Assembly: GCA_963674755.2 (NCBI GenBank) | Contig: CAXXVS010000001.1 | Span: forward strand, 160,001-224,000 | From: Desulfobacterales bacterium | GTDB taxonomy: Bacteria > Desulfobacterota > Desulfobacteria > Desulfobacterales > UBA5852 | DNA: 64,000 nucleotides | Reading direction: 5' to 3' | Part shown: positions 28,968-55,803 of the stretch, in pieces | Position numbering within the stretch: the stretch's first letter is position 1 | Layout of the letters: the number at the start of each line of letters is the position of its first letter | The notes under the pieces: generated by a model | Database searches by the model: none | What the model was told of the DNA's origin: nothing | Seen by the model: only the letters and a program-made list of their open reading frames with translations | Program-made: the position numbers and the translations under genes

Positions 28968-28985
28968 ATAGGAATACCTCTGGAT

Positions 28986-29482: not shown

Positions 29483-29496
29483 GTACGAATATTTAT

Positions 29497-29835: not shown

Positions 29836-29847
29836 ATGAGTGAAATC

Positions 29848-29972: not shown

Positions 29973-29975
29973 CTT

Positions 29976-30440
29976 ATGAAAATCAATATTCAGATTCGAA
30001 AAGCCAGACCGGAAGATAATGAAGCGGTAACGGATTTTGCATTTGAAATAATGAGATCACTGGGCATTGAACCAGACCCTGAAAATATTGATTACGCTTT
30101 GGCCACATTTGGTCTAGAGCGAGGATTCCCCCTAAGTGAATTCGTCGCCGTGGATGGGGAACAGCTTGTAGGGTCCATAATCTTGAAGCCGATCTCTGCT
30201 TCTGTTGCAGAAATGACCGGCTTCTATGTGCGGTCCAATTATCGAGGGCAGGGAATTGGGCATAAACTAATTAGGACTTTGCTGTCCGCTGCTATTGAGA
30301 TCGGATATAAACATGTTGTATTGACAACAAACTGGAATATGACGACGGCCATAAGTTTATATGAATCTTTTGGATGGGTAAGACAGTCGAAGAAGCCCGA
30401 AAACGGAGCAGACTATCTCTATTCGTTAAGCTTGCCATAG
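29976..30440 (+). CDS. Cassette 13: GNAT N-acetyltransferase
   Basis: IRKARPED, FYVRSNYRGQGIGHKL, AISLYESFGW. Confidence 0.9.
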   Translation: MKINIQIRKARPEDNEAVTDFAFEIMRSLGIEPDPENIDYALATFGLERGFPLSEFVAVDGEQLVGSIILKPISASVAEMTGFYVRSNYRGQGIGHKLIRTLLSAAIEIGYKHVVLTTNWNMTTAISLYESFGWVRQSKKPENGADYLYSLSLP

Positions 30441-30443
30441 CGT

Positions 30444-30510
30444 GTTTAACCAATGCACCGGACCGTCATTCCGCTGCGCCCCATACCAACCTGTAACTGG
30501 CGACCGACGG
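30444..30510 (+). other. attC 13 remnant (R' site decayed; right limit approximate)
   Basis: GTTTAAC CAATGCACCGGACCGTCATTCCGCTGCG has an attC-like left arm; no GTT at the expected position. Confidence 0.5.
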
Positions 30511-30532
30511 TCGCCATATAAATCGATGAAAT

Positions 30533-30931
30533 ATGAAAATCAATACATCAATTGAACAGTATAATATCAATTTTGGCTTAAAGCGTGAAGAAGTAAGGGA
30601 TATACTTGGCGAACCTTCTTCCATCGATAAAATCAAAGTTACAGATTATTCGGATTTAGAATGCTGGACCTATGACGCACATCAAATTGAATTAATATTT
30701 GATTCTGAACATTATTATCAGCTTTCAAGCATATCGTTCGCCTCGAAAAATGTTAAAGTTGAAGGTGTTGCAATAATAGGTCTAAAGGAAAAAAAGCTTT
30801 TAAAGAAATTTCCTGAGCTTTACTGCCAGGATGAAAAGGATGAAATTGGGTATAATTATGAATACCCAGGTGAGAATATGATGTTTTGGGTCTCTGATGG
30901 CATTGTTAAGCTTCTTACTGTTTATGAATAA
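30533..30931 (+). CDS. Cassette 14: hypothetical protein
   Basis: INFGLKREEVRDILGEPS motif; AT-rich and acidic. Confidence 0.75.
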   Translation: MKINTSIEQYNINFGLKREEVRDILGEPSSIDKIKVTDYSDLECWTYDAHQIELIFDSEHYYQLSSISFASKNVKVEGVAIIGLKEKKLLKKFPELYCQDEKDEIGYNYEYPGENMMFWVSDGIVKLLTVYE

Positions 30932-30973
30932 TCAAGCGGAGGCACTTAGGACGCTTCTTCCTAATTAATTTCA

Positions 30974-31040
30974 CACCAACCTTCTGCAGGATAGCTGGCG
31001 CTAATAAGGCCTTATAAGTAAGCTGAATAGCGAGTTCGAA
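30974..31040 (+). other. attC 14 remnant
   Basis: CACCAAC...CTGCAG...CTGAATAG...GTTCGAA; weak pairing. Confidence 0.4.
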
Positions 31041-31045
31041 AATAA

Positions 31046-31345
31046 ATGATTGAATCCCTAAGAAAATCCATAGCCAATCAACTGAGAAATACGCCTCTGG
31101 GATTGCTGAGAATAAAAAGAAATCTTGGTCTCAGCGCTTGTTCAGATATCGAAACAGAAGATTTGTTGCGAACAATGATTTTGTCGACACCACTGGAGGG
31201 CATCGAAACGAAAGGCAAAAATCATTATTTCCGATGTGTTGCATTCAGTGCCGTATTGACGGTGAACTCAAATACGTTCACGGTTATTACCGCAAAGCGG
31301 ATCAGCAAAACGTCCGGCAGTGGAAGGGAAAACCCGATAGGATAA
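31046..31345 (+). CDS. DUF3781-like protein
   Basis: NTPLGLLRIKRNLGL, KGKNHY, LTVNSNTFTVITAK. Confidence 0.75.
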   Translation: MIESLRKSIANQLRNTPLGLLRIKRNLGLSACSDIETEDLLRTMILSTPLEGIETKGKNHYFRCVAFSAVLTVNSNTFTVITAKRISKTSGSGRENPIG

Positions 31346-31348
31346 AAT

Positions 31349-32761
31349 ATGCAGCAGATCATCAACCGTTCAGCGGCGACCCTCGCCAAAGCTATTCGTC
31401 ACAAGGAGATTTCCTCGAAAGAGGCTGTCGCGCTATTTCTGAATCGCATAGAAAAGGTTAATCCGCGCCTGAACGCGGTTGTGCAGTTATCAGCGGAATC
31501 CGCATATGAACAGGCTCTGAAAGCGGACAACGCCTTGGCACGGGGCGATCTGTTTGGCCCGCTGCATGGCGTTCCCATGACGATTAAAGACTCGTTCGAT
31601 ACGGAAGGATTGATTTCCACCGGCGGAACAAAGGGGCGACGGGATTTTGTTCCATCCCGGGATGCGACCGTGGTCAGGCGCTTACGTGCCGCAGGGGCGA
31701 TCCTGTTGGGCAAAACCAATACATCGGAATTGACGCTCACCTATGAATCGAACAATCTGATCTACGGGCAGACATGCAATCCTTATGATCTCGCGCGTTC
31801 CCCCGGCGGCAGCAGCGGCGGGGCCGCGGCCATCGTTGCCGCGGGCGGTTCCGCCTTTGATATCGGAAGCGATTACGGGGGCAGTCTGCGGTTTCCGTCA
31901 CATTGTTGCGGCGTGGCCACCATCAAGCCCACTTCCGGCTGCGTGCCGCGAACAGGGCATGTTTTCCCTTTTGGCGGCGTGCTGGATTCGTTTCAGCAAA
32001 TTGGTCCTATCGCCCGCTGGGTCGAGGACCTGCAAATGATTTTGCCGATCATCGCCGGCCCTGACCTTATCGATCCTGGTATTGTTCCGATGGTATTCAA
32101 GGACCCGAGCGAGGTGGACCTGAAAGGTCTCAGGGTTGCGTTCCATACGGACAATGGCATTATGGCGCCTTCCCCGGACATCGACCAAGTGGTGCGCCGG
32201 GCGGTCACACGCCTTGCCGGCGAAGGCGCCATCGTGACTGAAGCGCGCCCGACAGGCATCGAACAAACCTATGATCTGATGATGGCACTGTTGTCAGCGG
32301 ACGGCGGTACGTCGATCCGGCGCTTGCTGGCGGAAGCGGGGACGAAGGAACACACGCTTCCCTGGTTGGGACTTGCCGCGCCTCTCGATGCGGTTCGCTT
32401 CGATGAGCTAATGGTGAAGTGGTTCCGCTTTCGAAGCACGCTGCTGTCCTTCTTCAAGAGTTATGATGTGATCCTCAGCCCTGTGAACGCCTTTCCTGCT
32501 CTGCCGATAGGGGCTTTGGGCGCGCATTTGGAGGCCTTCAGCTATACGATGACGTACAACCTGACAGGGTGGCCGGTGACCGTCGTGCGCGGCGGCACCT
32601 CATTGGATAAGCTTCCCATCGGCGTACAGATTGCTGCCCACCCTGGGCGTGAGGACGTCGCTCTGGCCGTGGCCGGATATCTCGAAAAAACCCTTGGAGG
32701 ATTTCAAGCGCCTTCGCTAAGTGGATCGATCTGTCAGAAGGAAGATAAAAAGAAGTCCTGA
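31349..32761 (+). CDS. Amidase-signature family protein
   Basis: GPLHGVPMTIKD, SPGGSSGGAAA, IGSDYGGSLRFPSHCCG. Confidence 0.93.
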   Translation: MQQIINRSAATLAKAIRHKEISSKEAVALFLNRIEKVNPRLNAVVQLSAESAYEQALKADNALARGDLFGPLHGVPMTIKDSFDTEGLISTGGTKGRRDFVPSRDATVVRRLRAAGAILLGKTNTSELTLTYESNNLIYGQTCNPYDLARSPGGSSGGAAAIVAAGGSAFDIGSDYGGSLRFPSHCCGVATIKPTSGCVPRTGHVFPFGGVLDSFQQIGPIARWVEDLQMILPIIAGPDLIDPGIVPMVFKDPSEVDLKGLRVAFHTDNGIMAPSPDIDQVVRRAVTRLAGEGAIVTEARPTGIEQTYDLMMALLSADGGTSIRRLLAEAGTKEHTLPWLGLAAPLDAVRFDELMVKWFRFRSTLLSFFKSYDVILSPVNAFPALPIGALGAHLEAFSYTMTYNLTGWPVTVVRGGTSLDKLPIGVQIAAHPGREDVALAVAGYLEKTLGGFQAPSLSGSICQKEDKKKS

Positions 32762-42159: not shown

Positions 42160-42510
42160 TTGCGAATGCCCGAAGCGATGGCCAGGCGCGCTGATGGTGA
42201 TGACGACGATCGGCGGATCGTTCAAAGAATTCTGGCCGGCGAAGTGGATGCCTTCGCCATCCTGATGACACGCTACCAGAATTACGTGCTGGCCATCGTA
42301 AAACGGCACGCCCCCCACGACCAGGTCGAGGAGCTGACCCAGGAGGTATTCCTCAAAGCCTTTCAATCCCTGGCCGGTTGGCGGGGCACGGGGCGTTTTC
42401 AGTCCTGGCTGTCGGCCATTGCCGTGCGAACCTGCTACGACTTCTGGCGCCAACGCAAAGAGCGCAGCAAACACTTTCACGGACCCTGGCGGCCTGCGGA
42501 TGATAGCTGA
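42160..42510 (+). pseudogene. ECF sigma factor, truncated after region 2
   Basis: ILAGEVDAFAILMTRY, EELTQEVFLKAF, FQSWLSAIAVRTCYDFWR; no region 4. Confidence 0.75.
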
Positions 42511-42561
42511 ATATCACCCCGGGAATCCCCGGGGCTCATAAAATGCTAACCATTCATCCCG

Positions 42562-42927
42562 GTGGTGCATTGTTTTCTGTCCGACGGCACGCGGCGGGTG
42601 GACCTCACGGAAGGCAACCGTAACGGCAAGAACGGCCCCATCGACACCCTTCTGTTTACCGCCCGGGTTTCTCCGGACATCTCCGAGAAAGAAGAATACC
42701 GGCTCTATCGCCAGGCACTTACAAGCCATGGCCTGCGCCGGAACGACATGGCCGGTATCGACCTCAAAACCATCCTGAAGGCCCGCGAAGGGGCGCTTGC
42801 CCTGCTCAAGGTCAATATGGAGCGAGCAGCAGGCCGAAACCATCTGATCGGTTTTCCCGGCGCTAGGGGGCATGCCGGACCGGCCGTGCAACGGGGCTTT
42901 ATCAGGAGGGGGCTACGGCCGACTTAA
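42562..42927 (+). pseudogene. Hypothetical protein, probably a C-terminal fragment
   Basis: Host-like codon usage but no RBS; directly follows the sigma truncation. Confidence 0.4.
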
Positions 42928-44317
42928 CCTCCGTTACGAGTTCGCTAAAATTTAGGGCGATGTCGCGCTCCCGCTCCAGCCGTTTCATGTAGTAGTAAAC
43001 CGCCAGGCTTTCGTCCGGATGGGATTTCCAGGGATGGCAGTGCAGGCGGCCGGTCTGATGATAGAGGTAGGGGCAGCCGCCCATGCAGGTCGGCAGCAGT
43101 CGGCAGTCCGCGCATTCCAACCGGAAAATGTCGCGCGGGCGCCAGTTTTTCGCATTTCGGCGCATGCGGTTGTCTTCGGCCTGGATCAGGTGCCCCACGG
43201 CGGCTGACGCATCGGAGGCCTCGTTCCAGCATTTGAGAAGCCGGCCGTGCGGCGTGACCACAAAGGCATTGGCCTTTTCGGCCATGCAGTAAGTACTGAT
43301 GGCCCGGGGAGCGCGGTAGGCTGGGAACCCCTGATCGATAAATTTAAGCGTTGTTTCCAGTTCGAGCAGGGAGAAGTCCGCATCCGCCAGGCAATCGCCG
43401 GCCACGTCCAGGCAGACGCCGGTGTACGGGTAGGTCCGTCCGAGGTACGGGTGCACCGCACCGGTCAATCCCTTGTGCGCCACTTGCTGGAGAATGTCGG
43501 GGATGGCCTCGCGGTTGGTCTGGTCCACATTGATGCGCAGGTTGATGGGCACCAGGGGCGCGGCGGCTTCCATATTGGCCAGGATGGCATCGAAGGTGCC
43601 GCTTCCATCGGCCAAGGGCCGCCGTTGGTCGTGAACGGCCGGCGGACCGTCGAGGGTGACCTGGGCATGGTTGACCCGACAGGCCTTGAGCCGCTCGGCC
43701 ATGGGACGATCCAGCAGGTATCCGTTGGTGATGATGTGGGATGCATAGCGGGCCTTGTGTTGATCACATATCCGCCGAAAGGCGGCGGTGAGCCATTCGA
43801 TACGGTTGATCTGCAGCAACGGTTCACCGCCGAACCAGGTGACGGAGAGGGTACCGCCTTCGCCCAACCGTTTTTCGATAAAATGCAGCAGGGCGTCCTC
43901 GACCGCGGGACCTATGGTGGCGGACTGATGCTCCTGGTAGCAGTAGCGACAGCGGAAATTGCAGGCCAGGGTCGGGATAATGGTCAGGCTGAGATGACGG
44001 TTGGCTTGCCGGGCCCGGGTTTGCCCGTTTCGCAGGTAGTCTTTTTCTTGCACCCCGACAGGAATCAGAAACCCCTTTTCCAGGAGTTGTTGATGGAGTC
44101 CATGGAATCGGGGGACAATTGCTATGGCAGGGGCATCCAGCAGCGCTGCGGCCTGCCGTGCTTCGGATGCATCCAGGGCCATCAGGTTCAGGGTAAAGAA
44201 GTTGAAGAAGAGAACCGTGCCATCCGGCAGGGCGGTGCGAAAATTATAGGCCGATGGTTTCAGATGACGGCCGGCGTTTGTTTCGGGCGGCGCTTCGATG
44301 GTGGACCTCCCCCCCAA
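42902..44317 (-). CDS. Radical SAM/SPASM peptide maturase
   Basis: RRE-like N-terminus (PSAYN...FFN...LLEKGFLI), CNFRCRYC, WFGGEPLL, ITNGYLL, QVTLDG, SPASM YCMA...KCW and CADCRLLPTCMGGCP; start uncertain. Confidence 0.92.
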   Translation of the reverse strand: MGGRSTIEAPPETNAGRHLKPSAYNFRTALPDGTVLFFNFFTLNLMALDASEARQAAALLDAPAIAIVPRFHGLHQQLLEKGFLIPVGVQEKDYLRNGQTRARQANRHLSLTIIPTLACNFRCRYCYQEHQSATIGPAVEDALLHFIEKRLGEGGTLSVTWFGGEPLLQINRIEWLTAAFRRICDQHKARYASHIITNGYLLDRPMAERLKACRVNHAQVTLDGPPAVHDQRRPLADGSGTFDAILANMEAAAPLVPINLRINVDQTNREAIPDILQQVAHKGLTGAVHPYLGRTYPYTGVCLDVAGDCLADADFSLLELETTLKFIDQGFPAYRAPRAISTYCMAEKANAFVVTPHGRLLKCWNEASDASAAVGHLIQAEDNRMRRNAKNWRPRDIFRLECADCRLLPTCMGGCPYLYHQTGRLHCHPWKSHPDESLAVYYYMKRLERERDIALNFSELVTEVKSAVAPS

Positions 44318-44341
44318 AGAATTTCCGGGTTGGGGGCCCGA

Positions 44342-45103
44342 TCAATTGGTTTTAGGTTGTACATTGAGCGTCTTCGGCTGGACGGGCTTCCCGCCCATTA
44401 CCTGCTGGGGGGTGATGAAGCGTTTCTGGCGGAGCATGTTCTGCACCTGGAGACCCAATTGCTGGGTGTTGGTGGTGTGGAAATGCTCCATCAGGCCCTG
44501 GACATAGGGGTCGTTGCGGAATTGATTCAACAGGCCGGTTATGTCCGCCTTATTTTTGGCGCAGCCGCTGAGTTCCGGGCATGATTGCGACGTGCACTCA
44601 TTGTCACCGCAGGTATCAAGATTGCCGCATTCCTGACCGTTGCAGTCGTTCGTGCGGCATTCTCCGCCGGTCGTCCCCCCTTCGTCACCATAATCCTGCC
44701 CACTGCAAACATTGGTGGCGCAGGTATCCAAGGCCGGGCACGAATCACCGCCAAAGGCGCCGCAAATGGAAAATTGAGGACAACTGCTGGCGGCATTCGC
44801 ACCGGTGACGCCGCCCAGGGAATGGACGGCGCAACCCATACCCCGGGTGGCACCGGGTATCCCCATGCGGGCGGCCGGCTTCAAAGGGGTAATCCGTCCG
44901 AATTGGCTTTGAAAGACCTTGAGGTCGAAGCCGGACAACTGGACCTTGAGCATTTTTAATTTTGTTTGAGCGCTTTTGGGCAGGGTCCCGGCCTCGGCCG
45001 AGAGCAGGCGCCGGAGATCCAATACGCTGATGCCTGCGGCCAGGGCCACAGTTTTTAAAATATGGTTCAGGGCTTTGCGGCGGTCCATATTCTCGGTGAG
45101 CAT
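44342..45103 (-). CDS. Cys-rich repeat protein with twin-arginine-like leader; putative rSAM substrate
   Basis: MDRRKAL + hydrophobic stretch + AEA; 13 Cys in a central repeat region; immediately upstream of the rSAM. Confidence 0.8.
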   Translation of the reverse strand: MLTENMDRRKALNHILKTVALAAGISVLDLRRLLSAEAGTLPKSAQTKLKMLKVQLSGFDLKVFQSQFGRITPLKPAARMGIPGATRGMGCAVHSLGGVTGANAASSCPQFSICGAFGGDSCPALDTCATNVCSGQDYGDEGGTTGGECRTNDCNGQECGNLDTCGDNECTSQSCPELSGCAKNKADITGLLNQFRNDPYVQGLMEHFHTTNTQQLGLQVQNMLRQKRFITPQQVMGGKPVQPKTLNVQPKTN

Positions 45104-45196: not shown

Positions 45197-46969
45197 CTAT
45201 TTGCGAAGCCTTGTGGCACTGAAAATTCCCAGCATGATGAAGATGGCAGAAAAAATATACGGCACGATAGTGAACCCGGTCCCGCCCGGGACCAGCACGG
45301 CCTGTTTGGGTCTGTCGGGATTGTAGTAGACTTGGACGGGTTTGCCTTTCGGGTAGCGGGCAACGATCTGTTGGGCATTGCCGGAGGATGACGAAAATGA
45401 AATTCGGGTATTTTTGTGGCTTTGCCCTCCAACCTGGTATTGATAGGCGATTTTGGGGTATTGCACCGCCTCGGTTTTTTTGCTGCCGTCACTGCCGGCC
45501 GTGCTATCGTGCGCCTCGATTTCTGATCGAACAATGACGCCCTCAGCCGTCGGCCACGTTTTGCTTTCCATGCGGGTTGCATAGGCGTTGTAGCTGAACA
45601 GGGCGATAACGATGCCGATGGCCGGGAAGATGACAGCCCCGGCAAGTTTTTCAGTGGCGGGGGCCATAAACCCGCCGATCAGGAAGAAAACCCCGAACCC
45701 CAGAATGATCAGGCCTGCCAGAACCGCATCCATAAGCAAAGTCACCACACAAATCAGTATGAGTAAAACTCCGGCAATCCGTTTCAACCACCGCTTGGCC
45801 GTTTGGATTTTGGGCGCCATGGCGCCGTCGGCTTTACTGACGAATTCTTTGAAAAGCGCCTTTGTCTCGTCTTCCGAGTAACGCTTCGGCCTTGCGGGAT
45901 CGGAGAAAGTCGGGGGGGCGGCTTCCTTGTTGGGTGTGGAATCGGCCAAAGCGGCATTGGCCGCCGCTACGCTTCCGGGTGCCGACGGACTTGGTTGGGT
46001 CCAGATCCGGGTGTTCATATTCAAATCGTCAACGAGGTCTATGGCCAGCTTCAGGTCGTTGTAATATTCCTGGACGTGGGCGATGTTGAGCAGGCTCTCC
46101 ATGATTTTGGGTTCGAACAACTCTTTTTCGAACGGAATGGCCACATGCAGTTTGGACGCGGAAAAGGAAAGCCGCATGTCTTTGCGGCTGCGGGTGCGAA
46201 ATTCAACGATGCGGCGCATCAGGCTGGTGGAAAGAATATAGCGGGCTTCCACCTGATCCTCGCCGTAGACCACAAATAATTTTTCGAATTCCGGGTCCTC
46301 CATTTTGACCAGTTGGCCGTTCGGAACGTTGAGGGCCTGAAGGGCCTGTCCTAAATCGCCGAACAGTTTCTGGGCCGTGTCCGGCAGGACAATGGTCGTC
46401 CCCTTGAAGGCTTTGTTGAAATCCGCCACAAAAAAGAGGCCTCTGAAAATGGGCGTGTATCTTTTTTTGGTTCGGTGGGTGTTGCTGGCACTTGAACTTT
46501 GCCGGATGATGTCCACCCGCTTGGCGTGAATCTCCGAGAATTGGACGGCGGTCTCTCCCAAGGTGCCGCTTACCAGGTCGTCCCCCCCATACTCACCGGG
46601 GCGGTCCTTGAACAAATGGCTGGCAATGAAATCTTCTTTGGGCACCCTCCCGGCCTTGTCGTATCGTAAGCGCTGATCGACAAAGGCGACGATCCTGGGG
46701 ATAATGGTTTCCTTGAAGCCGGCATGATAGTCCCGGTAATATTTAATGTGCCACGGGAAAAACGTAAAAATGGCGGAGACAATCAGAAACATGAGCAGGA
46801 AGATGGCATTGAGGCCGAATTGGCCGGCAATGAACAGAAAGACCAGATTGACACCCACCAGAAGACATATCGCCTGAATCAATTTTTTCTTTACGGTTAG
46901 CCGCTGGGCCTCCAGCTTCTCCAAATCCGGCAACAGATCGGATTGATAAAATGTTTCCAGCGATTTCAT
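45197..46969 (-). CDS. DUF3137-like membrane protein fused to a DUF3592-like domain
   Basis: FRGLFFVADFNKAFKGTTIV, EDPEFEKLFVVYGEDQVEARYILS; C-terminal WPTAEGVIVRSE...YQYQVGG...VYYNPDRP. Confidence 0.8.
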   Translation of the reverse strand: MKSLETFYQSDLLPDLEKLEAQRLTVKKKLIQAICLLVGVNLVFLFIAGQFGLNAIFLLMFLIVSAIFTFFPWHIKYYRDYHAGFKETIIPRIVAFVDQRLRYDKAGRVPKEDFIASHLFKDRPGEYGGDDLVSGTLGETAVQFSEIHAKRVDIIRQSSSASNTHRTKKRYTPIFRGLFFVADFNKAFKGTTIVLPDTAQKLFGDLGQALQALNVPNGQLVKMEDPEFEKLFVVYGEDQVEARYILSTSLMRRIVEFRTRSRKDMRLSFSASKLHVAIPFEKELFEPKIMESLLNIAHVQEYYNDLKLAIDLVDDLNMNTRIWTQPSPSAPGSVAAANAALADSTPNKEAAPPTFSDPARPKRYSEDETKALFKEFVSKADGAMAPKIQTAKRWLKRIAGVLLILICVVTLLMDAVLAGLIILGFGVFFLIGGFMAPATEKLAGAVIFPAIGIVIALFSYNAYATRMESKTWPTAEGVIVRSEIEAHDSTAGSDGSKKTEAVQYPKIAYQYQVGGQSHKNTRISFSSSSGNAQQIVARYPKGKPVQVYYNPDRPKQAVLVPGGTGFTIVPYIFSAIFIMLGIFSATRLRK

Positions 46970-47028
46970 GATTACTCCCTTTCCGGACGCCATGCTTTCC
47001 AAGACAGGTTGAGATGGGGTTTTCCTAT

Positions 47029-47586
47029 TCAGGTCTCAAAGAGTCGGCCGACATCGACGGGTTGTCCCTCCCGGGCGTCAATTTCGAAAAACACCTTTTG
47101 CTGGTATCGCATCAGACCGGCCACCAGATTGCTGGGAAACATTTCCAGCGCATTGTTGTAGTCTTTCACGGAAGCGTTGTAGGCTCGGCGGGCCGCTGAA
47201 ATTTGTTCCTCCACTTCGTTCAGGGAAGCCTGCAGGTTCAGAAAGTTTTCGCTGGCCTTGAGATCCGGGTAGTTTTCCACGGCCACCATGATCCGGCCCA
47301 GGGCGCTGGATACGGTTTTATCCAGTGCCACGGTTTCGGCCTCGCTCATCTGACCGGAGGTCGCCTTGGTGCGCATGTCGGTCACCTGGGTGAGGACATC
47401 CGCTTCGTGCTTCATGTAGCGCTTCACCATTGCGGTCAGGTTCGGTATGAGATCGAAGCGCTTCTTGAGCAGCACATCTATGCTGGAAAAGGCGTTGGCC
47501 ACCTGGTTTTTCTTGCCCACCAGATTGTTGTAGAGCAAAACAAGAACGAGTACGATCACACAGGCAATGACGATGGCGATAATCAC
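47029..47586 (-). CDS. lemA: LemA family protein
   Basis: YNNLV...IDVLLKKRFDLIPNL, VENYPDLKASENFLNLQ, ARRAYN, FPSNLVA. Confidence 0.93.
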   Translation of the reverse strand: MIIAIVIACVIVLVLVLLYNNLVGKKNQVANAFSSIDVLLKKRFDLIPNLTAMVKRYMKHEADVLTQVTDMRTKATSGQMSEAETVALDKTVSSALGRIMVAVENYPDLKASENFLNLQASLNEVEEQISAARRAYNASVKDYNNALEMFPSNLVAGLMRYQQKVFFEIDAREGQPVDVGRLFET

Positions 47587-47598
47587 AGTTTTCCTCCT

Positions 47599-48201
47599 CT
47601 ATTTAAAAATATCGTTGAAGAGGCTGCGCACGCCCTTGCGGACTTCCTGGATGGTGCTGTCCTTGGCTTCCTCCCGGGCGGCCTGGCCCACATCCTTAGC
47701 GTCATCGGTAACCGCTTCTCCAACCGCCGAGGGCTCCGTTTGCTTCTGGGGCGAGTTGGATGACGATGATGCGCTGGCCTGGCCACTGCAATTGCCGATC
47801 CGCCCGCCGGTGATGTGATTGGTGACCTGCATGTTGCTGCCTGCGATCGCCATGTGCATGGAACCTTCCATGGAATCACCATGATAGGTCACCTCGCCGG
47901 TACCCTCCATCTGACCGCCCTTGCCGCCGCAGACGATTTTCCATGAGATCGTGTCGCCGTTGGTGACAATGTCCGACACCTGGCATTCCTGAGAGGCGCC
48001 TTGACTCATGGGAACCAGATCGTCATTGGTGATGCACTGGGTATGGGTTTCGGGCGGTATCTGCATGTTGGCGGCACCCTGCATTTCAGTTTCGGTGGTA
48101 AATTCCCATTGGCCAGGATTGAGATTTGGTCCGGCCGTGGCAGTGCCGATCGCAAGGAGAATTGACAGCAGCAAAGCGTTCATAAGGTAGCATGTTTTCA
48201 T
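47599..48201 (-). CDS. DUF3617-like exported protein
   Basis: Signal peptide, LNPGQWEFT, TQCIT, WKIVC, GRIGNC; GGAGG RBS. Confidence 0.8.
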   Translation of the reverse strand: MKTCYLMNALLLSILLAIGTATAGPNLNPGQWEFTTETEMQGAANMQIPPETHTQCITNDDLVPMSQGASQECQVSDIVTNGDTISWKIVCGGKGGQMEGTGEVTYHGDSMEGSMHMAIAGSNMQVTNHITGGRIGNCSGQASASSSSNSPQKQTEPSAVGEAVTDDAKDVGQAAREEAKDSTIQEVRKGVRSLFNDIFK

Positions 48202-48226
48202 AGGGACCTCCTTCTGTAGTGAAGAA

Positions 48227-48637
48227 TTATTTACAGACATCCAGTTTGCAGGTTCTTTTGATGTCCTGCTTTTTTATGCGATCGCACAGTTTGCAATCTT
48301 TTTGCAGGAGGGCCAGCCGGTAATAGCACCATCCGTGGACGCCGTCGGCCTTGGGCCAGTAGGTGAGAATATTTTCGCACAGGTCCGGATCGCCGATTTT
48401 TTCAACTTCCTCCTGGTAACACCACGGTCCTGGTCTGTCCGTCTGGGATTGACACATGGCATAAATCGGGTCCTCTTCGGCATGAAATGTCGTTGCCGCC
48501 GCGAGAACCACTAGTATGGCAAGCGCCAGACAGATCCAGCCTGTTCTTCCGAGATTTGAAAACCCATTATGCACTTTTTGTTTAGGCATTTTCCCCACAT
48601 TGCTCCTTTTTTTTTTGGTTTTCCCCCGGTGTACCAC
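48227..48637 (-). CDS. Small Cys-rich membrane-anchored protein
   Basis: TM helix then repeated WCY...D..LC..I units; start uncertain. Confidence 0.65.
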   Translation of the reverse strand: MVHRGKTKKKRSNVGKMPKQKVHNGFSNLGRTGWICLALAILVVLAAATTFHAEEDPIYAMCQSQTDRPGPWCYQEEVEKIGDPDLCENILTYWPKADGVHGWCYYRLALLQKDCKLCDRIKKQDIKRTCKLDVCK

Positions 48638-48693
48638 CCCGCGTGGTCATCCCGGCGGCGGCCGGAAGTTTCACAAAAAGTTCAGCTTGTCTC

Positions 48694-49191
48694 CTAATAC
48701 TTCCCACTTGGCGTATTGCTGGCCGGCTTGGGAGTAATTGGGTCCATGGGCTTGGGGTAAGCCGGGTCCAAGGGCTTGGGGGTCTGCTGGGTTGTGGGCG
48801 TGAGCAAGCGTTTCAAGGTATCGGTATCGTTCCGATCGGGCCGCCCGCTGCTGTCGGTAAAGCGGGTGTGCGTTTTCACCACAAGCGCGTTGCCGGACAG
48901 GCTGATGGTGAGATCGCGCACACAGGAACTATTTTTATAGCAGGTCGCGAGGTGGCCATCCGTATAGGTGCTGGCCGGTTCCCATCCCCAGTCGTAATCC
49001 TTTTTGGGGCGAAGTGGACCCCAGGCATGGACGTGGGCTTTGGAATCAACGACACTGATCTCGATTTTGGTGATGGCTTGGGGGACGGAAGCGAGGTTGA
49101 TCCAGTTGCCGTTGTACAGGTTAAAGTTGGCGGCGAAAAGGGGGCCCGCCATCACGAATAGAATTGTTGCGGTGCTTACGAGATGCCTCAT
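48694..49191 (-). CDS. Hypothetical secreted protein with Pro-rich tail
   Basis: Signal peptide (LFA), GNWIN...ITKIEI...VHAWG...DWG, PKPLDP/PKPMDP repeats. Confidence 0.75.
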   Translation of the reverse strand: MRHLVSTATILFVMAGPLFAANFNLYNGNWINLASVPQAITKIEISVVDSKAHVHAWGPLRPKKDYDWGWEPASTYTDGHLATCYKNSSCVRDLTISLSGNALVVKTHTRFTDSSGRPDRNDTDTLKRLLTPTTQQTPKPLDPAYPKPMDPITPKPASNTPSGKY

Positions 49192-49243
49192 GCTTTTCTC
49201 CCTTCTCGCTGAATTTTAAACTATTGTCGGATTACACGTACGG

Positions 49244-49903
49244 TTACCATGAAGCGACACAGCGATTGTTCCCGCGGTGACGATTGGCTTCATGGAAGGT
49301 GTTATCGGGATCGACATCAACGATGAGTTTGACGTATTGAATCGTGCCGACTTTAAGGCCGTACTCCATTCGTGGAGACAAAACGACCCAATGGCGCTGG
49401 TCAATAGCGGTGCCATCGTTTTTGGCTGATATGACTTCTTGTTCAATCAGGGTGTTATTTTCCCTGTTGACCAACTCGATTCTGATAGGGATTTGTTTGC
49501 CTGGTTCAATGGGTTTTGTGCCGTTGTTTTTCAATGCAACGTTGAAGGAGAGTATCGTGAGCGTGTGCTTACCGACCGTTGTGATGGTGCGGTTGACAAC
49601 CTTTGTATCGTGCAGCTTTGCGGCGAGATCATATTCAGGTATATCCAATTTTTTGACGGGCGGTTTATCGACCTGCTGGTATTCCTTCGCGGGCGCCCCC
49701 GATGGCAAGGGCACGGTCTTGGTTGTTTCCCCTGGGAGAACTTTTCCCGCGGGGACAGTGGTTGTTTTCCCAGAGATGGGTTTGTCTGTGACGGTTTGGC
49801 TTGCCGCCAGGGCGGAGGAGACGATTACGCCGTTCAACAGGAAAAGCAACCCCGCCAGCGCGACCACGGGAAAATACTGCTTGATTAAAGATGGGTTGGA
49901 CAT
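49244..49903 (-). CDS. Secreted protein with CARDB/Ig-like domain
   Basis: Signal peptide (ALA); YDL, LKNNGT, VDVDPDNTFHEANRHRGNN; GGAGG RBS. Confidence 0.7.
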   Translation of the reverse strand: MSNPSLIKQYFPVVALAGLLFLLNGVIVSSALAASQTVTDKPISGKTTTVPAGKVLPGETTKTVPLPSGAPAKEYQQVDKPPVKKLDIPEYDLAAKLHDTKVVNRTITTVGKHTLTILSFNVALKNNGTKPIEPGKQIPIRIELVNRENNTLIEQEVISAKNDGTAIDQRHWVVLSPRMEYGLKVGTIQYVKLIVDVDPDNTFHEANRHRGNNRCVASW

Positions 49904-49915
49904 GGTTTCCTCCTA

Positions 49916-52099
49916 TCATTGACAATCCTCATCAAGGTCTTTCAAAAGACCGTCCATTTCTGTCCGGTAGGCCTCCAACTCCCAATCACCTAGCATGTCC
50001 ATGGTCTTCAATTCCCCCTGCACCTTGGTGTACTGCCGCACATGAACCCTTTCATGGCGGAGGGCATTGTCCAGCAAGGAGCGGCCGGCCCATTTGCCAT
50101 CGCAAGCTTCCCACTCCGATAGAATGGCATCGGGATCCACGCTTTGGGTCAATTTGCCGTTTGCGTCATATTTTTCCAATACGATGTCTTTACCGCCGAT
50201 CTGCGCGTGGATTTCCGTTCCCAGAAAGTGCTCGCTCTGCTTATCAAAAACCGGGCATGTCTGGAGCAACGTTTTGACCCTTTCATCTTTGAGGGTGGCG
50301 TCGGTTAGAGTGGTTTGGTCGGCGGGCATGGTTGTGGCGCTATCGACGATCTCATCAAGGGTGCCGGCTACGTCCGCCCTCGTAGCTTCTGCAACCATGT
50401 CGATTTTTTCCTGAATGGAAAGATCCGTGTTGTCAGCGGCGTCCGGCACCAGTGCTTCGATTACCTGTTGGTAAGCGTATTGGCGGCCGTTTTCATTCGT
50501 AACAAAATCTTTAACAGCATCCCGAATGGTCTGATTGCCGTAAGCGGCCCGGACAATTTGGATATAATTGACCCGGTTTTGCATGTTGGCGCAGTCCCGC
50601 TCCTTGTTTTCAACGGTTAGGAAATCTTCCTGGGGTTGGGATGTTGGATCGTTTTCCGATAGCTGCCAACTCACCGTATAGGTCACATTCATGTTGCCGC
50701 CGGCCGGCGGTTTCAATGGTTTTTGATTTTGAGTTGCGGCAATATCGAAGATAGAGATGCCCAATGAAGGCGGGCATAGCCCCTGATCGTCCGCCTGCCA
50801 GGTGCGGGACCCAATAAGACGTCCGGAAGCCTGTGGTTCGGCCCGGATGCCGATGCGGCATCCGGGAAAACCCCGATCCACCGTTGTGTAGGCGCACGCC
50901 GTTTTTCCCGCATCTTTTTTTCGGCCACGAATCCGCTTTCGATCCCCTCCCGGTCCTAGTACCAATTCATAGTAGTCCGGCAGCGCCATGGCGCCTTTAA
51001 GAGCGGATAAAAATTTTTGCTTGTCTGCCGACAGGTTTTGCAGATAGGGCGCGGCTGAAGCGGAATAACGATGAACTTTAAACAAACTTTCCTCGGATAG
51101 TGGTATACTGCTCCCGCCATGATATTCGACAATCAAAGGGTCCTGGCAGTGGCCGGATGGTATGGGCTTCAGGCTCGTTCGTTGTTCGTTGTAAACATAG
51201 GACACGGTGCCACCTTCGACCCTGTAGGTCGTTGCGGGTTGAACGGCGCCGTAGGCGCCTTGAATGGTGGGGCTGGCCTCTTCCCAAATTTTCATTTGTC
51301 CTAATAGGTGCAGGCTAATCGATCCGGTATACGCATATTCGTCCGGCTCGGTCACCCTCCAGCGGACGGTGGCCTGGATAAAAGCATAAAGCCTGTCCGG
51401 CAGATCGTCGTGGATATCAAAGGCGCTTTCAGACGGAAAAGCGTCGTCCGAGGACGGGTCTTCAGTGTTCGGATCGTCATCCTTGGGCGGCGGGGAAGGA
51501 TCATCCGGCAGGTTGCCGCCGTCTTTTTTCTCCATGACGGAGCCCTGGCGATGCGGGAATTGGTAGCGACGAATCAAGTCGCCTTTGCCGATGGGCGTCC
51601 CCTCGATGGTGACGCTGCTATTGGCGGAGAGCTTTTTCTCCTTTGGGGCCGCGACAGGTTTCGTGGAATTTTGATAGCGCTGGGCCGTTTGCGGATCCAA
51701 GGATTTCTCGATAGACGACTTCAGGATCACGGCAAGGGTGACATATGTTCGGTCACCTTTGTCTTCCGCTTTGATCGTAAATGTGTTCCCCTGATGCCGC
51801 AGCATTACGGCACAGATTTTGCCGGCGGACATGATCTGGCCAGCCGGCCATCCTTTGGCCTGCATGGCCTGATGGTAGAATTCGACGGCCTCGGCAGGCG
51901 TGATATCCACCTCGAATTCGAAGCGCCCGGAGCCCTCGAATTGCTTTTCCTTTATAATTCGGGCCCCCTCGATCAGGGGGATATCGGTGCCCGCAAGGGT
52001 GGCGGCCTGACCTATGACCGGCAGGCCTGTTAACACGATGGCCAGGATTGCAGCGGCCTGAAAGAAGAGACTGATTCGCTTTTCAAAAGAATACGTCAT
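49916..52099 (-). CDS. Large secreted multidomain protein with C-terminal HExxH motif
   Basis: Signal peptide, Pro/Asp-rich linker, LRHERVHVRQ...WELEAY. Confidence 0.75.
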   Translation of the reverse strand: MTYSFEKRISLFFQAAAILAIVLTGLPVIGQAATLAGTDIPLIEGARIIKEKQFEGSGRFEFEVDITPAEAVEFYHQAMQAKGWPAGQIMSAGKICAVMLRHQGNTFTIKAEDKGDRTYVTLAVILKSSIEKSLDPQTAQRYQNSTKPVAAPKEKKLSANSSVTIEGTPIGKGDLIRRYQFPHRQGSVMEKKDGGNLPDDPSPPPKDDDPNTEDPSSDDAFPSESAFDIHDDLPDRLYAFIQATVRWRVTEPDEYAYTGSISLHLLGQMKIWEEASPTIQGAYGAVQPATTYRVEGGTVSYVYNEQRTSLKPIPSGHCQDPLIVEYHGGSSIPLSEESLFKVHRYSASAAPYLQNLSADKQKFLSALKGAMALPDYYELVLGPGGDRKRIRGRKKDAGKTACAYTTVDRGFPGCRIGIRAEPQASGRLIGSRTWQADDQGLCPPSLGISIFDIAATQNQKPLKPPAGGNMNVTYTVSWQLSENDPTSQPQEDFLTVENKERDCANMQNRVNYIQIVRAAYGNQTIRDAVKDFVTNENGRQYAYQQVIEALVPDAADNTDLSIQEKIDMVAEATRADVAGTLDEIVDSATTMPADQTTLTDATLKDERVKTLLQTCPVFDKQSEHFLGTEIHAQIGGKDIVLEKYDANGKLTQSVDPDAILSEWEACDGKWAGRSLLDNALRHERVHVRQYTKVQGELKTMDMLGDWELEAYRTEMDGLLKDLDEDCQ

Positions 52100-52187
52100 T
52101 CGCTTGCGGCCTTTCGTCCTCTGGAAAAACACTATCGAAGTCACTGAGCATAGTTGACAAGTCAGACGAGCGTCTCCTTTCATATGA

Positions 52188-53699
52188 TTATTCCGCTAAG
52201 GGAAATGCCGCGCTAATGGTCTCGCTCTCTCCCGCGCTTATCGTAACCGCCTCGAATGTCAGAATCTGTTTCGTGTCACGGATATTGGTAATTTGCACCT
52301 GGTAAGTCCCTTCCGGCAGTTCGACGACGCGGGTACCATTCTTGGGCCAGTTGCTCCAGTTATCGAAAACCTTATTGCCGGCCGCGTCCTCGATTTTAAT
52401 CGGGGTCGCAAAGGGTTCCCCGTCGTGGGTCGCGACAATCGTCAGTTCGCCGGCCAGAAATTCGACGGTTTTTTCAACAGAACCGCCGGACGGGATTTCC
52501 ACATCTTCCATGACAACTTTGGGCTGACCGGCGATTCCACTGCCCCACACCTCGAAACGATAGATGCCGGGTACCAACCGCCTGTTCAACTTCCCCGTAG
52601 AAGAATTGGTATTTTCGTTGTGGAAGTGCTTTTTATCGCCCTGGTGATAATAGAAAACGTTCCCACTGAAAGGCTTACCGTTGAGCAGGGTGGTGATAAA
52701 AAAGGTGCCGTCCGAAAAATCAGCCGTGCGCTCCACCGTTTCGCCGGCCACGATGACAATCTCTTTAAAACGCACCGTCGGGGTCTGGCCGCCGCTGACA
52801 CCCGTGTCCTTAAGTTCCGCCGTATAGGTGCCGGGTTCCAGTCGTATCGCCACCCTTCCGGTTTCCCCGGATGTACTGTCCTTCGCCCATTGCTTGCCGC
52901 TTGCCGGATCGGTCAGGGTGATAAACGTACGGAAGGGCTTGCCGTTCTTGGTGGCGGTAACCTGGAGGATCCCGTAGGGCGGGGTGGCCTTTTGCACCAC
53001 CTCCTGAGCCGCCGCCAGGAATTCGCCGGCATTGCCGGCCGTGTAATATTGCCCGCCGCCTTCCCGGGCCATGCATTCCAATTGCTCCCGCTCTTCTTCG
53101 GTGACATCGAACCCGATGACATGCATGACAAACTGGATGCCGGCCGCCTTCAAGTCTTTCACCAGGCCGCAGGGATCCGGATCGCAGGTTTCCTTGCCGT
53201 CGGACACCAGAATGATGGTGGTCGTATCCTCCAGGTGTTTGATGCGCTCGGCGGTGAGCCGCACCGACCGGCTGATGGGGGTCTTGCCCTTGGGGCTCAG
53301 GGCCTGGATCCGGCCCACCATCTTCTCCTTGTCCAGCGGTCCCAGGGGGATCAGTTCCTCCACGTCGTCGCAGTCACCCTTGCGGCGGTGGCCGTAGGCC
53401 ACCAGCCCCACCACGGCATCGTCCGGCAGCTCTGTCACCAGACCGGTGAGCACTTCCTTGGCAATGGCGATTTTGGCCTGATCTTCCACCTGGCCCCACA
53501 TGGAGCCCGATGCGTCCAGGATGAAAACGATGTTCCCGGCCGTTGCGGCGGCCGCCCTGTTTTCGGAGCCGATGGCCTGGTCCTGGGCACTGGCGGCCGT
53601 ATCGGCTACCACCGTGCTTCCCGCTGCTGCAGAAGCGAGAGAGAACAGCAACGCGAACATTGCCGCGAACCCGGTCAGGATCATATGGCGTGTCAGCAT
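52188..53699 (-). CDS. Secreted VWA-domain protein with C-terminal beta-sandwich repeats
   Basis: Signal peptide; ILDASGSMWG, YGHRRKGDCDDVE, LVSDGKETC; repeats LEPGTY/LVPGIY/LPEGTY. Confidence 0.9.
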   Translation of the reverse strand: MLTRHMILTGFAAMFALLFSLASAAAGSTVVADTAASAQDQAIGSENRAAAATAGNIVFILDASGSMWGQVEDQAKIAIAKEVLTGLVTELPDDAVVGLVAYGHRRKGDCDDVEELIPLGPLDKEKMVGRIQALSPKGKTPISRSVRLTAERIKHLEDTTTIILVSDGKETCDPDPCGLVKDLKAAGIQFVMHVIGFDVTEEEREQLECMAREGGGQYYTAGNAGEFLAAAQEVVQKATPPYGILQVTATKNGKPFRTFITLTDPASGKQWAKDSTSGETGRVAIRLEPGTYTAELKDTGVSGGQTPTVRFKEIVIVAGETVERTADFSDGTFFITTLLNGKPFSGNVFYYHQGDKKHFHNENTNSSTGKLNRRLVPGIYRFEVWGSGIAGQPKVVMEDVEIPSGGSVEKTVEFLAGELTIVATHDGEPFATPIKIEDAAGNKVFDNWSNWPKNGTRVVELPEGTYQVQITNIRDTKQILTFEAVTISAGESETISAAFPLAE

Positions 53700-53736
53700 A
53701 ACGGTCTCCTTAGTATGGGGTTCCAGTTGCCGGTCC

Positions 53737-55803
53737 CTAACGCGTGTTTAAAGATTCCAGCATCTCGACGATGGCTTGGCGGTTTTTCTGTTCAAAAGGT
53801 TTCTCGCCGCGCTGCGGCGCCCGGGCCCAATCCAGGGCGGTCTGGCCGCTGCCATCCCGGGCGTCGATGTCGGCGCCGTGGTCCAGGTAGAATTTCAGCG
53901 GCTCAAGCCACGCTTTTTGGGCGGCGTGCATCAAAAGGGTTGTGCCGCTTTTGCTGATGGGCTTGTTGACATCCGCTCCTTTTGAAAAAAGGATTGCGAG
54001 GGTTTCCCGGACACCGGGTTCGAACATGCCATTCTTGGTTTTAAAGGCCAATTTCCAGACAGCGGTTTCCTCGTTGACCGGGGCGCCCGCCTCCACCAGC
54101 ACCGCGATCACCGCCTGCCAGTGTTTGCGGTTGCTCTGGGCCTGGGAAAGGGCGTCGTTGCCGGAACGGTCCCGGTAGGCCAGATCGCCGCCCCGGGCGA
54201 TGATCATTTTGACCATGTCGGCCGTGCTCAGATTGGCCGCTTTTTGCAGCAGGGGGGCGCCGTAGACCCGGGCATTGGGGTCCATCCCGTTGTCGATCTG
54301 TTCCCGGACGGTGGCGATGTCGCCATCGTTAAAGGCCTGGATAATGATTTTTGTTGCGGCCTTGTCGAGGCCGGCCGCGTTTGATCCCGGCGTGGTTTTC
54401 GAAGCGCGGCCGACGGAGGCGTTTGGCTGGGTGCGAACGATCTTCGGCGCTGAAGGCGGTTTGGCGGCCGCCGGGGGATCGTTTGCCGCACGTGCTTCTT
54501 TGGGGGCTGCGGCCGGCTGTTCGGCGCGATATGCGACCCCGTCGTTTTCTCCGGCAACACTGATTTCGCATGTCCGAATCTGCTGCTCTGCCGCAAACGG
54601 GAAGGTTTCGCTGACGCCATTAGCAATGCGGCACTTTTTTTCGAAGACCTGGTCCTGATAGTCGCGCCGAAAGCATTTGAGGGTCACCACGGACGCCGGT
54701 GCATCCTGGCTGTCGCCGGTTACCGTGATGGTCGTGGGCCGGGCGGGGTCGAGGCTGATCCCTGTGGCGCCCAGGATGCTCAGATGCAGATAGCCTTCTT
54801 GGATTTTTCGGCCCCTATCGAACGCGAACGGATCGGCTTCGTTGGTCACGGTGGCATAAACGAGCCCCTCTTCGACCTGAACGGACACCCAGGCGGTTTT
54901 TTTCGCCTTTTCGATCTCCAAACGTTTGGTTTGTCCTTTTTTGACGAGGTCCACTGGGTGGGGTGGGGCGGCATCCCAAGCGCCGTCTTCGGGGATGATG
55001 CGGTAGCGGCATATTGATCGATCGGTAAGGTTTTTAAGAACAAGTTTGAGCGGCCTGTGAGGGTCGACGGCCACCTGAATTTCTCCTCCCTTACCGATAC
55101 GGCGCCCCCAGGGTGCGGTGCCTTTGACGGTTCGGGTAATGGCCGGTTTGTCCTTCCTGGCCGGGGTCGGCCGTTCTTCCTTGGCGTATTCTTCGGGAAT
55201 TGCAAAAACCGATGCGTCGATCGATCCCGCCTCAATGTTGCTCAGTTCCAGGGTCACATCCCGGATATTGGTTTTGACCTCGAAGGCGCCATCTTTACGA
55301 CCGCTGATGATATGGGCTTTGACCGGGAAAGCGCCCAGCTCTCCGGCGAACCACACATCCGCCAGTTTGGCGTCCTGGTCGTAAAACCCATCGTGATCGC
55401 AGGCATAGCCCGCGATCGTGTCCGTGCCGATCCTCCGCCGGGTGACATTTTCCTGCAGGTAGGTGATGGCTTGAAAGGGATCTATCAAGTAGGCGCGCGG
55501 AGAGAAGTTTTCAAACGTGTCATAGGTGCGGTTATTGGGGTTGAGAAGCAGCGTTTCCCCTTTGGTGCGATCCACGAGCACGACGGGTCCTTTGGCAACG
55601 CTGTCACCCGCGACGGTCAAATCCATCAGGTAGCGACCATCGGTTGCGTAAATTTTGCCTGTCACATCGCTGTCGAAAATCCGTGCCGTAATGTCGGCCG
55701 TAAAATCCTTTCCCCAGGTGGATCGGCCGGCCAGCAAGATCCCTAAAAAGAAGAGAAAAAAACGACAACCGATTCGTATTCCCCCAGGTTTCGTTCGCGT
55801 CAT
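53737..55803 (-). CDS. Secreted protein: DUF4412-like N-terminus and C-terminal ankyrin repeats
   Basis: DFTAD...GKIY, GTDTIAGYACD, IDASVFAIP; ankyrin GADVN...TTLLMHAA, GADIDARDGSGQTALDWA. Confidence 0.8.
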   Translation of the reverse strand: MTRTKPGGIRIGCRFFLFFLGILLAGRSTWGKDFTADITARIFDSDVTGKIYATDGRYLMDLTVAGDSVAKGPVVLVDRTKGETLLLNPNNRTYDTFENFSPRAYLIDPFQAITYLQENVTRRRIGTDTIAGYACDHDGFYDQDAKLADVWFAGELGAFPVKAHIISGRKDGAFEVKTNIRDVTLELSNIEAGSIDASVFAIPEEYAKEERPTPARKDKPAITRTVKGTAPWGRRIGKGGEIQVAVDPHRPLKLVLKNLTDRSICRYRIIPEDGAWDAAPPHPVDLVKKGQTKRLEIEKAKKTAWVSVQVEEGLVYATVTNEADPFAFDRGRKIQEGYLHLSILGATGISLDPARPTTITVTGDSQDAPASVVTLKCFRRDYQDQVFEKKCRIANGVSETFPFAAEQQIRTCEISVAGENDGVAYRAEQPAAAPKEARAANDPPAAAKPPSAPKIVRTQPNASVGRASKTTPGSNAAGLDKAATKIIIQAFNDGDIATVREQIDNGMDPNARVYGAPLLQKAANLSTADMVKMIIARGGDLAYRDRSGNDALSQAQSNRKHWQAVIAVLVEAGAPVNEETAVWKLAFKTKNGMFEPGVRETLAILFSKGADVNKPISKSGTTLLMHAAQKAWLEPLKFYLDHGADIDARDGSGQTALDWARAPQRGEKPFEQKNRQAIVEMLESLNTR

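Follow-up and report, generated by a model that had tools for sequence, protein, structure and literature searches.

A conserved gene pair encoding a cysteine-repeat protein with a twin-arginine segment and a radical SAM/SPASM enzyme in a Desulfobacterales bacterium: a candidate system for thioether cross-linking and export

The window analysed here is a stretch of 64,000 nucleotides from a Desulfobacterales bacterium (GenBank assembly GCA_963674755.2, contig CAXXVS010000001.1, positions 160,001 to 224,000), and our subject is a pair of neighbouring genes on its minus strand. One (44342..45103) encodes a protein of 253 aa with 13 Cys and no Trp, the putative substrate; the other (42902..44317) encodes a radical S-adenosylmethionine (SAM)/SPASM enzyme of 471 aa, its putative maturase. 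Both open reading frames (ORFs) lie where the original prediction had placed them, with a gap of 24 bases from the substrate gene to the enzyme gene, and each gene is present once in the genome. The start of the maturase is uncertain, as it is called from a TTG codon and distant homologues start near residue 19. The original prediction had also noted that no peptidase or ABC exporter is adjacent, and we found none among the 11 neighbouring ORFs scanned. Promoter and terminator scans of the locus gave results near the level of shuffled sequence.

The substrate can be divided into four parts, all encoded on the minus strand. Residues 1–38 (44990..45103) form an atypical twin-Arg signal-like segment, D-RR-K-A-L ... 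A-E-A, with a putative cleavage site. Next are an N-terminal helical flank, residues 43–75 (44879..44977; K-x-LKV-x-L ... VF-x2-EFGR-x-TP), seen in two alignments and in models, and the Cys core, residues 91–184 (44552..44833), which is the proposed site of thioether cross-links. A C-terminal helical flank, residues 185–235 (44399..44551; DPYVQ-x-L-x3-F-x2-TT-x3-L), is seen in alignments and in a model. In the substrate, Cys occupies positions 91, 108, 114, 122, 128, 133, 149, 154, 159, 165, 170, 175, and 181, mostly at intervals of 5 or 6. The description of the core given earlier was accurate: Asp or Glu stands at +4 for Cys 122, 133, 149, 154, 159, and 165, Ser stands at +4 for Cys 91, 108, 170, and 175, and there is a 16-residue repeat, with spacing 6-5-5, that reads C-x2-L-x2-C-x2-N-x-C-x2-Q-x.

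A word-based search found 20 close homologues, with 39–96% identity. When 1.84 billion representatives were searched with a profile, 87 family representatives at 50% identity were recovered (E ≤ 0.001). The close alignment contains 20 sequences, the window protein and 19 homologues, with one fragment excluded. The family shares a layout of a twin-Arg segment, a variable linker with a conserved helical stretch, a Cys core with 6–19 Cys, and a conserved C-terminal stretch; one subgroup retains the core and C-terminal part and has a different N-terminal flank. The window substrate has no Pfam or NCBIfam match. A comparison of 72 relatives with Pfam gave only scattered weak matches, and the CefA model is touched weakly by 9 of 70 members (best E = 1.5e-5), the window substrate itself being unmatched. 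The best ESM Atlas scores, 0.86 and 0.88, are below 0.9 and are leads only. We found no fused forms of 537–2000 aa, which is weak evidence. The family is rare, being present in 2 of 12 congeners, none of 48 other relatives, and 1 of 400 genomes of the phylum. The closest named relatives are in Desulfobacteraceae assemblies, and among the other named hosts are records with the labels Deltaproteobacteria, Myxococcota, and Bacteriovoracaceae. Longer members include P0031 (345 aa), P0096 (412 aa), and P0110 (373 aa). P0031 and P0096 are extended at the C-terminus; the latter contains 19 Cys and has a tail rich in Pro.

Is the enzyme a dedicated partner of the Cys-rich protein? We fetched 25 loci for the pairing count; these include the near-duplicates L005/L011, L016/L017, and L008/L019, so the number of independent loci is below 25. 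A radical SAM gene (46–77% identical) is the next gene after the substrate in 20 of the 25, and in the other five the sequence ends 0–240 bases downstream of the substrate gene. The contig of L015 stops within the first enzyme codons, and the contig end at L008 shares 37 bases with the end of a contig of the same genome that bears a 51%-identical radical SAM gene. Three further loci, from whole genomes, are also paired, one of them (L031) in reversed order with the linkage kept. In a search from the enzyme side, 7 of 400 phylum genomes gave a match at E ≤ 1e-45. The 48%-identical match comes with a substrate, and one match of 37% identity comes with a distant homologue (L040), whose score is attained by 0 of 2000 shuffles and whose C-terminal flank is also detectable. 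No member of the substrate family was found within 1.5 kb of the other five matches (30–37%). Across the loci, no third gene is conserved and no peptidase, exporter, or immunity gene recurs; the neighbours vary between lineages and are often envelope proteins. Thus, the homologues stay beside the radical SAM gene, and this linkage, together with the grouping of 16 paired enzymes in one 100/100 clade, supports a dedicated pairing of the enzyme with the Cys-rich protein. The two genes are co-inherited and make up a real, conserved two-gene system.

Some details of individual loci may be noted. A palindromic repeat between the substrate and enzyme genes breaks the assembly at the L008 end and at the L037 end (genome G458). 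L021 (1016-2620 and 191-739) has two tandem substrate genes ahead of a single enzyme gene, with an Hcp-family protein that has a signal-peptide-like start upstream on the opposite strand. The enzyme of L020 (1396-2417) is split over two overlapping frames, by a frameshift or an assembly error.

All 13 Cys of the core are invariant over the 20 aligned sequences. It had been proposed that the conserved spacing is Cys-x3-Asp/Glu, with acceptors of the PapB/QhpD type. In the window protein alone, 6 of the 12 Cys counted in the core have Asp/Glu at +4, more than chance would give (p = 0.008 in a shuffle test), and the excess of Asn/Gln at +3 is stronger, at 7 of these 12 (0 of 20,000 shuffles). The family statistics were obtained from 82 cores, after 5 of the 87 with fewer than six Cys had been dropped. 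Asn/Gln occupies +3 for 44.7% of the Cys, compared with 15.8 ± 1.2% in shuffled cores (0 of 1000 attain this), whereas Asp/Glu occupies +4 for 15.7%, compared with 13.6% in shuffled cores (26 of 1000 attain this). In the close set of 20, the residue at +3 is Asn, Gln, or Leu in 16–20 of the sequences at nine consecutive Cys (122–175) and in 15 at Cys 181. Thus, the Cys-x3-Asp/Glu spacing is not family-wide, and it is kept at three of its six sites in close homologues; the conserved spacing is Cys-x-x-Asn/Gln. Asn is a proven radical thioether acceptor for NxxcB (PMC9389541), and PapB acts on C-X3-D (PMC9413430). The number of Cys is odd in 42 of the 82 members, and an all-disulfide core therefore fits poorly. 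For reference, a Cys-rich tail encoded beside a RefSeq TIGR04463 gene has Asp, Ala, Asn, or Glu at +3 for 28 of 28 Cys and no Asp/Glu at +4.

The enzyme is a radical SAM protein with a SPASM domain, as originally described. It matches Pfam Radical_SAM and has the CxxxCxxC SAM-cluster motif at residues 119, 123, and 126 (43940..43963, minus strand) and a seven-Cys SPASM domain at residues 344, 363, 402, 405, 411, 415, and 427 (43037..43288, minus strand), for which TIGR04085 is above its cut-off. The N-terminal region, about residues 19–100 (44018..44263, minus strand), resembles a recognition element (RRE) for peptides made on the ribosome and modified post-translationally (RiPPs). This assignment comes from profile coverage, as the TIGR04463 and TIGR04334 profiles cover the region from their first positions (TIGR04463 from profile position 6); the PqqD/RRE models do not match the enzyme. 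The corresponding region of CrpC has been assigned as an RRE (PMC13692751).

A profile scan of 69 families gave TIGR04463 as the best, with 251 bits for a cut-off of 525, followed by Clo7bot (248, cut-off 600), geopeptide (182, cut-off 400), and CefB (178, cut-off 600). The PapB and QhpD profiles gave 109 bits for a cut-off of 340 (32%) and 59 bits for a cut-off of 453 (13%), so the suggestion that the enzyme, and with it the choice of acceptor, is of the PapB/QhpD type did not hold. In the tree, from which 6 of 30 rows were excluded (five long or outgroup sequences and one duplicate), and which was midpoint rooted and contained one TIGR04463 and one Clo7bot reference but not CrpC, the 16 substrate-paired enzymes form the 100/100 clade on a long branch. 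Given these scores and the separate clade, the enzyme can be likened to the TIGR04463, Clo7bot, and CefB types, but it is a member of none of them and represents its own subfamily. All 13 conserved Cys positions of the enzyme are common to the RefSeq TIGR04463 protein. At the six active-site-proximal positions defined in PMC10288494, the window enzyme has YFITWN, the TIGR04463 example FYVTWD, the Clo7bot example YYVTWN, and CteB FFTSHQ. The clade also conserves two extra Cys, 302 and 309, which the TIGR04463 and Clo7bot examples have as well.

Other radical SAM genes were seen on the way. Two more SPASM-type genes, about 22% identical and with no family substrate nearby, are found near each other at 2262964-2266672 of G000:C2 (L003 and L004). 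In L045 (257-1396, genome G160), a 30%-identical radical SAM gene is immediately preceded by a frame of 380 codons whose short Ala-rich repeats contain 23 Cys; this enzyme groups with the TIGR04463 example, and its Cys-rich neighbour is a different substrate family. On a Methylomagnum plasmid (L046, 1708-8667 of NZ_AP019784.1), a CefA-annotated protein of 679 aa has large N-terminal domains and a 28-Cys tail, and downstream of its gene are a TIGR04463 enzyme, a radical SAM C-methyltransferase, and a 2-oxoglutarate-Fe(II) oxygenase.

How does this pair compare with known systems? The NCBIfam entry TIGR04463 predicts maturases of large Cys-rich proteins. CrpC of Methanococcus voltae, a TIGR04463 enzyme reported in 2026, has three bound clusters and introduces thioethers, which are probably ranthionines, into CrpA, a protein of 28.8 kDa (PMC13692751). 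Up to 4 of 6 Cys were modified in the one CrpA fragment observed, the thioether motifs given are CAVD, CAGM, CPLV, and PCAGD, and C-X-X-Q/D repeats are noted (PMC13692751). We read CAVD, CAGM, and CPLV as motifs that span from Cys to +3; this is our reading of the motifs themselves and not of a figure in which the acceptors are marked. The present pair resembles CrpC/CrpA in having an enzyme with a putative RRE, a radical SAM domain, and a seven-Cys SPASM domain (Cys gaps 19-39-3-6-4-12 here and 19-38-3-6-4-19 in CrpC), next to a substrate of 25–30 kDa with a 16–17-residue Cys repeat and C-x-x-Q/D motifs, and in that no dedicated protease is described. However, CrpA differs in its N-terminal domain, in a Cys region that extends to the C-terminus, and in a listed sequence with no twin-Arg start, whereas the present core is internal, with a helical flank on either side and a twin-Arg segment ahead of it; the enzyme scores under the TIGR04463 cut-off and falls in a clade of its own. 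By eye, no entry among the 34 rows of the Crp homologue table of PMC13692751 resembled this family. The comparison with CrpA and CrpC used profile scores, residue numbers as published, and inspection by eye.

CefA/CefB (NF038108/NF038107) and Clo7bot (TIGR04334) share with the present pair the Cys at every fifth or sixth residue, and the enzyme scores 178 and 248 bits with their models, but the cut-offs of 600 are not reached, and the Cys of the CefA example are in a terminal tail. The Clo7bot precursors are peptides of about 50 aa in arrays with an ABC transporter, whereas the window substrate has 253 aa. QhpD, like the proposed system, makes radical SAM thioethers on a protein subunit, QhpC, in the cytoplasm before export, and the thioethers replace disulfides; QhpC differs in its cleaved 28-residue leader, ABC exporter, protease, and Trp-derived cofactor (PMC7876137), and the window protein has no Trp. 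A genome search with PF08992 (QhpC) gave no match, though the positive control likewise gave none. PapB/PapA (freyrasin) and NxxcB also form small thioether rings, with Asn as the NxxcB acceptor, but they act on short peptides, PapB at C-X3-D and NxxcB at a motif in which Asn precedes Cys.

The original prediction held that this architecture is not a described class. That is correct in part. The general kind is known, from the TIGR04463 prediction, from the biochemistry of CrpC/CrpA, and from QhpD/QhpC. For the substrate family, the enzyme subfamily, and the layout of signal, flank, core, and flank, we met no description in the libraries and literature that we searched, which largely do not extend to subscription journals. 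In the literature searched, we found one paper for 'TIGR04463', no paper for the names 'Cys-every-fifth' and 'Clo7bot', nothing relevant for FlmE/OhkG, and, among the papers listed, none that joins radical SAM, thioether, or RiPP precursors with twin-arginine or twin-arginine translocation (Tat) signals.

What is the function of the twin-Arg segment? It had been described as a Tat-like leader, and some of its features agree, with RR at residues 8–9 and A-E-A at 36–38, while others do not, as it has RR-K-A-L instead of RR-x-F-L and an uncharged run of only 11. R8 and R9 are invariant in the close alignment, and in 64 of 70 members RR falls among the first 35 residues. RR-x-F is present in 9 of the 87 representatives, and the distant homologue of L040 has RRQFLK. 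A hypervariable linker follows the A-x-A or L-x-A-Q site, a pattern like that after a cleaved signal. The best PDB sequence match of the family profile, a weak one (E 0.15–0.26), is a nitrate reductase Tat signal peptide, and the genome has tatC (250 bits). The conservation of the segment, 0.40, is more than usual for signal peptides, and it models as two helices with a pLDDT score (predicted local distance difference test) of 70–82. According to PMC7317946, the Phe of the Tat motif is not essential, and lower hydrophobicity at this position reduces or slows transport. From these sequence features, we lean toward Tat export of the substrate, though with reservations.

Conserved flanks in the alignments and folded flanks in the models support the claim of a substrate of protein size that has an internal core and long flanks. 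Conservation is 0.48 and 0.39 for the two flanks, compared with 0.36 for the core. AlphaFold2 gave the window protein confident helices on either side of a low-confidence core (predicted template modelling score, pTM, 0.53). The helices of the N-terminal flank have pLDDT of about 81–83 in the window protein and 93–97 in P0054, and residues 191–220 of the C-terminal flank have 92–94 in the window protein. In P0054, the smallest member (185 aa), pTM is 0.62 and both flanks have pLDDT >90. Structural alignments often span both flanks, which suggests that in the models the flanks pack together. Foldseek gave no match at E ≤ 0.001, and the best Z scores of VIA-align, 3.0 and 2.8, are not a fold match, which does not establish a new fold; over the core, the best fold matches are beta-solenoids, with Z of 3.0 or less. 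Mean-field direct coupling analysis of 102 sequences (effective number 81) gave noise. A suspected resemblance of the C-terminal flank to a Nif11/NHLP-like follower was unsupported by family scans and the fold search.

We propose the following mechanism. By analogy with the related enzymes, the maturase very probably acts on the Cys-repeat protein, and the bond that it forms is probably C–S. In the cytoplasm, the enzyme would bind the N-terminal part of the substrate, cleave SAM, abstract a side-chain hydrogen, and join the carbon to a Cys sulfur. The acceptor would mostly be the residue at +3 (Asn or Gln and perhaps Leu), so that a string of small four-residue rings results, an assignment that conservation and the CrpA motifs slightly favour; some Cys may stay unlinked. 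It is likely, from conservation and the models, that the core is not excised and that it forms an insert borne by the two co-folding helical flanks. The folded, modified protein would then leave by the Tat route, with loss of residues 1–38, a step that appears reasonably probable from its sequence. The likeliest purpose would be a rigidity that resists reduction, thioethers taking the role of disulfides in an envelope that is anaerobic and sulfidic, so as to provide a binding surface. Binding of metal or mineral by spare Cys and amide or acid side chains is a tentative first guess even if the other steps hold. As a whole, a self-contained two-gene cassette that makes a thioether-stapled exported protein seems to us evenly balanced between right and wrong.

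Several observations weigh against this proposal. For this clade, thioether chemistry on the substrates is a suggestion from the enzyme family. The enzyme is about 31% identical to the TIGR04463 reference, with less than half the cut-off score; a 99/95 branch separates the RefSeq TIGR04463 row from the paired clade, which is nearer the uncharacterised Clo7bot enzyme. Its proximal residues agree with those of CteB at one of six positions, and Cys 302 and 309 could fill the open iron site that is thought to be used by thioether formers. In the core, three sites keep Asp/Glu at +4, in 19, 19, and 16 of the 20 close sequences (13, 11, and 8 at the other three). The Asn/Gln position is mostly flanked by two Cys, 73% being in C-x-x-N/Q-x-C, and the frequency of Asn/Gln is 25% at +3 without a following Cys and 18% at −2 without a preceding Cys, with a background of 15%. 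The direction of the donor is thus poorly resolved, and the same pattern would be expected from a structural ladder of Asn/Gln. The contact of the two flanks rests on single-chain models. For export, we compared the segment with the consensus Phe of Tat signals and with a TATFIND-like rule that asks for an uncharged run of at least 13. The pattern fits 60 of 70 members, 27 of the 70 have the run of 13 as well, and the window protein fails. Ala is at the consensus Phe position in 49 of the 60 and Phe in 6. Pfam TAT_signal gave a best E of 0.26 over 72 proteins, and the N-terminal profile of the family does not place the canonical Tat proteins of the genome high.

The signal-like segment could also be a remnant, derived from a Tat signal and now serving as the leader for the RRE of the enzyme, so that the same cross-linked product would stay in the cytoplasm or on the inner membrane. 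The prevalence of Ala over Phe, the acidic residue that shortens the hydrophobic run to 11, the slower Tat transport expected at lower hydrophobicity (PMC7317946), and the conserved, helical character of the segment all fit this idea, but RR is near-invariant and close to the N-terminus, canonical RR-x-F exists within the family, the linker varies as it would behind a cleaved signal, many neighbours are envelope proteins, and Phe is not essential (PMC7317946). We consider it unlikely. The chemistry may instead differ: the product may not be C–S (C–C, C–N, epimerisation, or modification of Asn/Gln), with the Cys binding metal or forming disulfides in a beta-solenoid that has Asn/Gln ladders. 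This would account for the highest Asn/Gln enrichment being between two Cys, the beta-solenoids among the core matches, the proximal residues unlike those of CteB, the two extra Cys, and the limit of 4 of 6 modified Cys in the CrpA fragment. Nevertheless, the only characterised enzyme found in this neighbourhood makes thioethers (PMC13692751), the named neighbour families inspected (TIGR04463/CefA and Clo7bot) have Cys-rich substrates, and odd numbers of Cys are common, and this alternative appears rather unlikely.

Should the links be C–S, they could still be Cys-to-Asp/Glu bonds in C-X3-D/E motifs, as for PapB and QhpD. The six motifs of the window protein, the three sites kept in 16–19 of 20 close homologues, and the slight family-wide excess speak for such bonds, but the other three sites keep Asp/Glu in only 8–13 of 20, the family rate hardly exceeds that of shuffled cores, and the PapB and QhpD profiles reach small fractions of their cut-offs, which makes this improbable. 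Least probable of these alternatives is an ordinary RiPP precursor with a long leader and follower, from which housekeeping proteases would free a polycyclic core after export as an antibacterial or metal-chelating product. The variable core length, the tandem substrate genes of L021, as are often found in RiPP clusters, and the patchy distribution would suit it. However, no conserved peptidase, transporter, or immunity gene is seen at the loci, no conserved cleavage motif is seen at the core borders in the alignments, and both flanks are conserved and predicted to be folded.

The thioether-stapled exported protein, if it exists, would add to a short list, as we met two worked examples of enzymatic thioether cross-linking of whole proteins, QhpC and CrpA. 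The family would contribute a bacterial example with two genes, in which the core is internal, the acceptors are amides, and the route is probably Tat. The smallest family members, of about 185 aa with 7–8 Cys and a polar core, look easier than CrpA for mass spectrometry. An enzyme able to staple a loop within a folded scaffold, with no Asp/Glu requirement, would be a tool for protein engineering, and the use of thioethers for disulfides in exported proteins of anaerobes becomes testable. A bolder form, which we regard as doubtful, is an exported class with up to a dozen Cys-to-Asn/Gln/Leu rings in a variable insert on a previously unseen two-part helical scaffold, shipped by Tat, in which the weakened signal (Phe to Ala) delays export until stapling is done; if so, it would be an anaerobe's substitute for periplasmic disulfide folding.

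The surroundings of the gene pair were also inspected. On the plus strand at 42160-42927 are a 116-aa ORF for an extracytoplasmic function sigma factor, with region 2 only, and then a 121-aa ORF without a family. Their counterparts in a congener (L006) have 214 and 234 aa and are about 860 bases apart; given these longer, spaced-out counterparts, both ORFs may have been truncated by a deletion in the window. Upstream of the cassette is a co-oriented run on the minus strand (45197-55803), which encodes a DUF3137 and DUF3592 membrane protein, LemA, a DUF3617 protein, several unnamed proteins whose starts resemble signals, a vWA protein, and a DUF4412 and ankyrin protein. This run is retained in congeners, and in distant loci only DUF3617 or DUF3592 recur beside the cassette. 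Finally, the region at about 20000-32000 of the window has a GC content of 0.36–0.50, compared with about 0.60, and is probably an acquired island.

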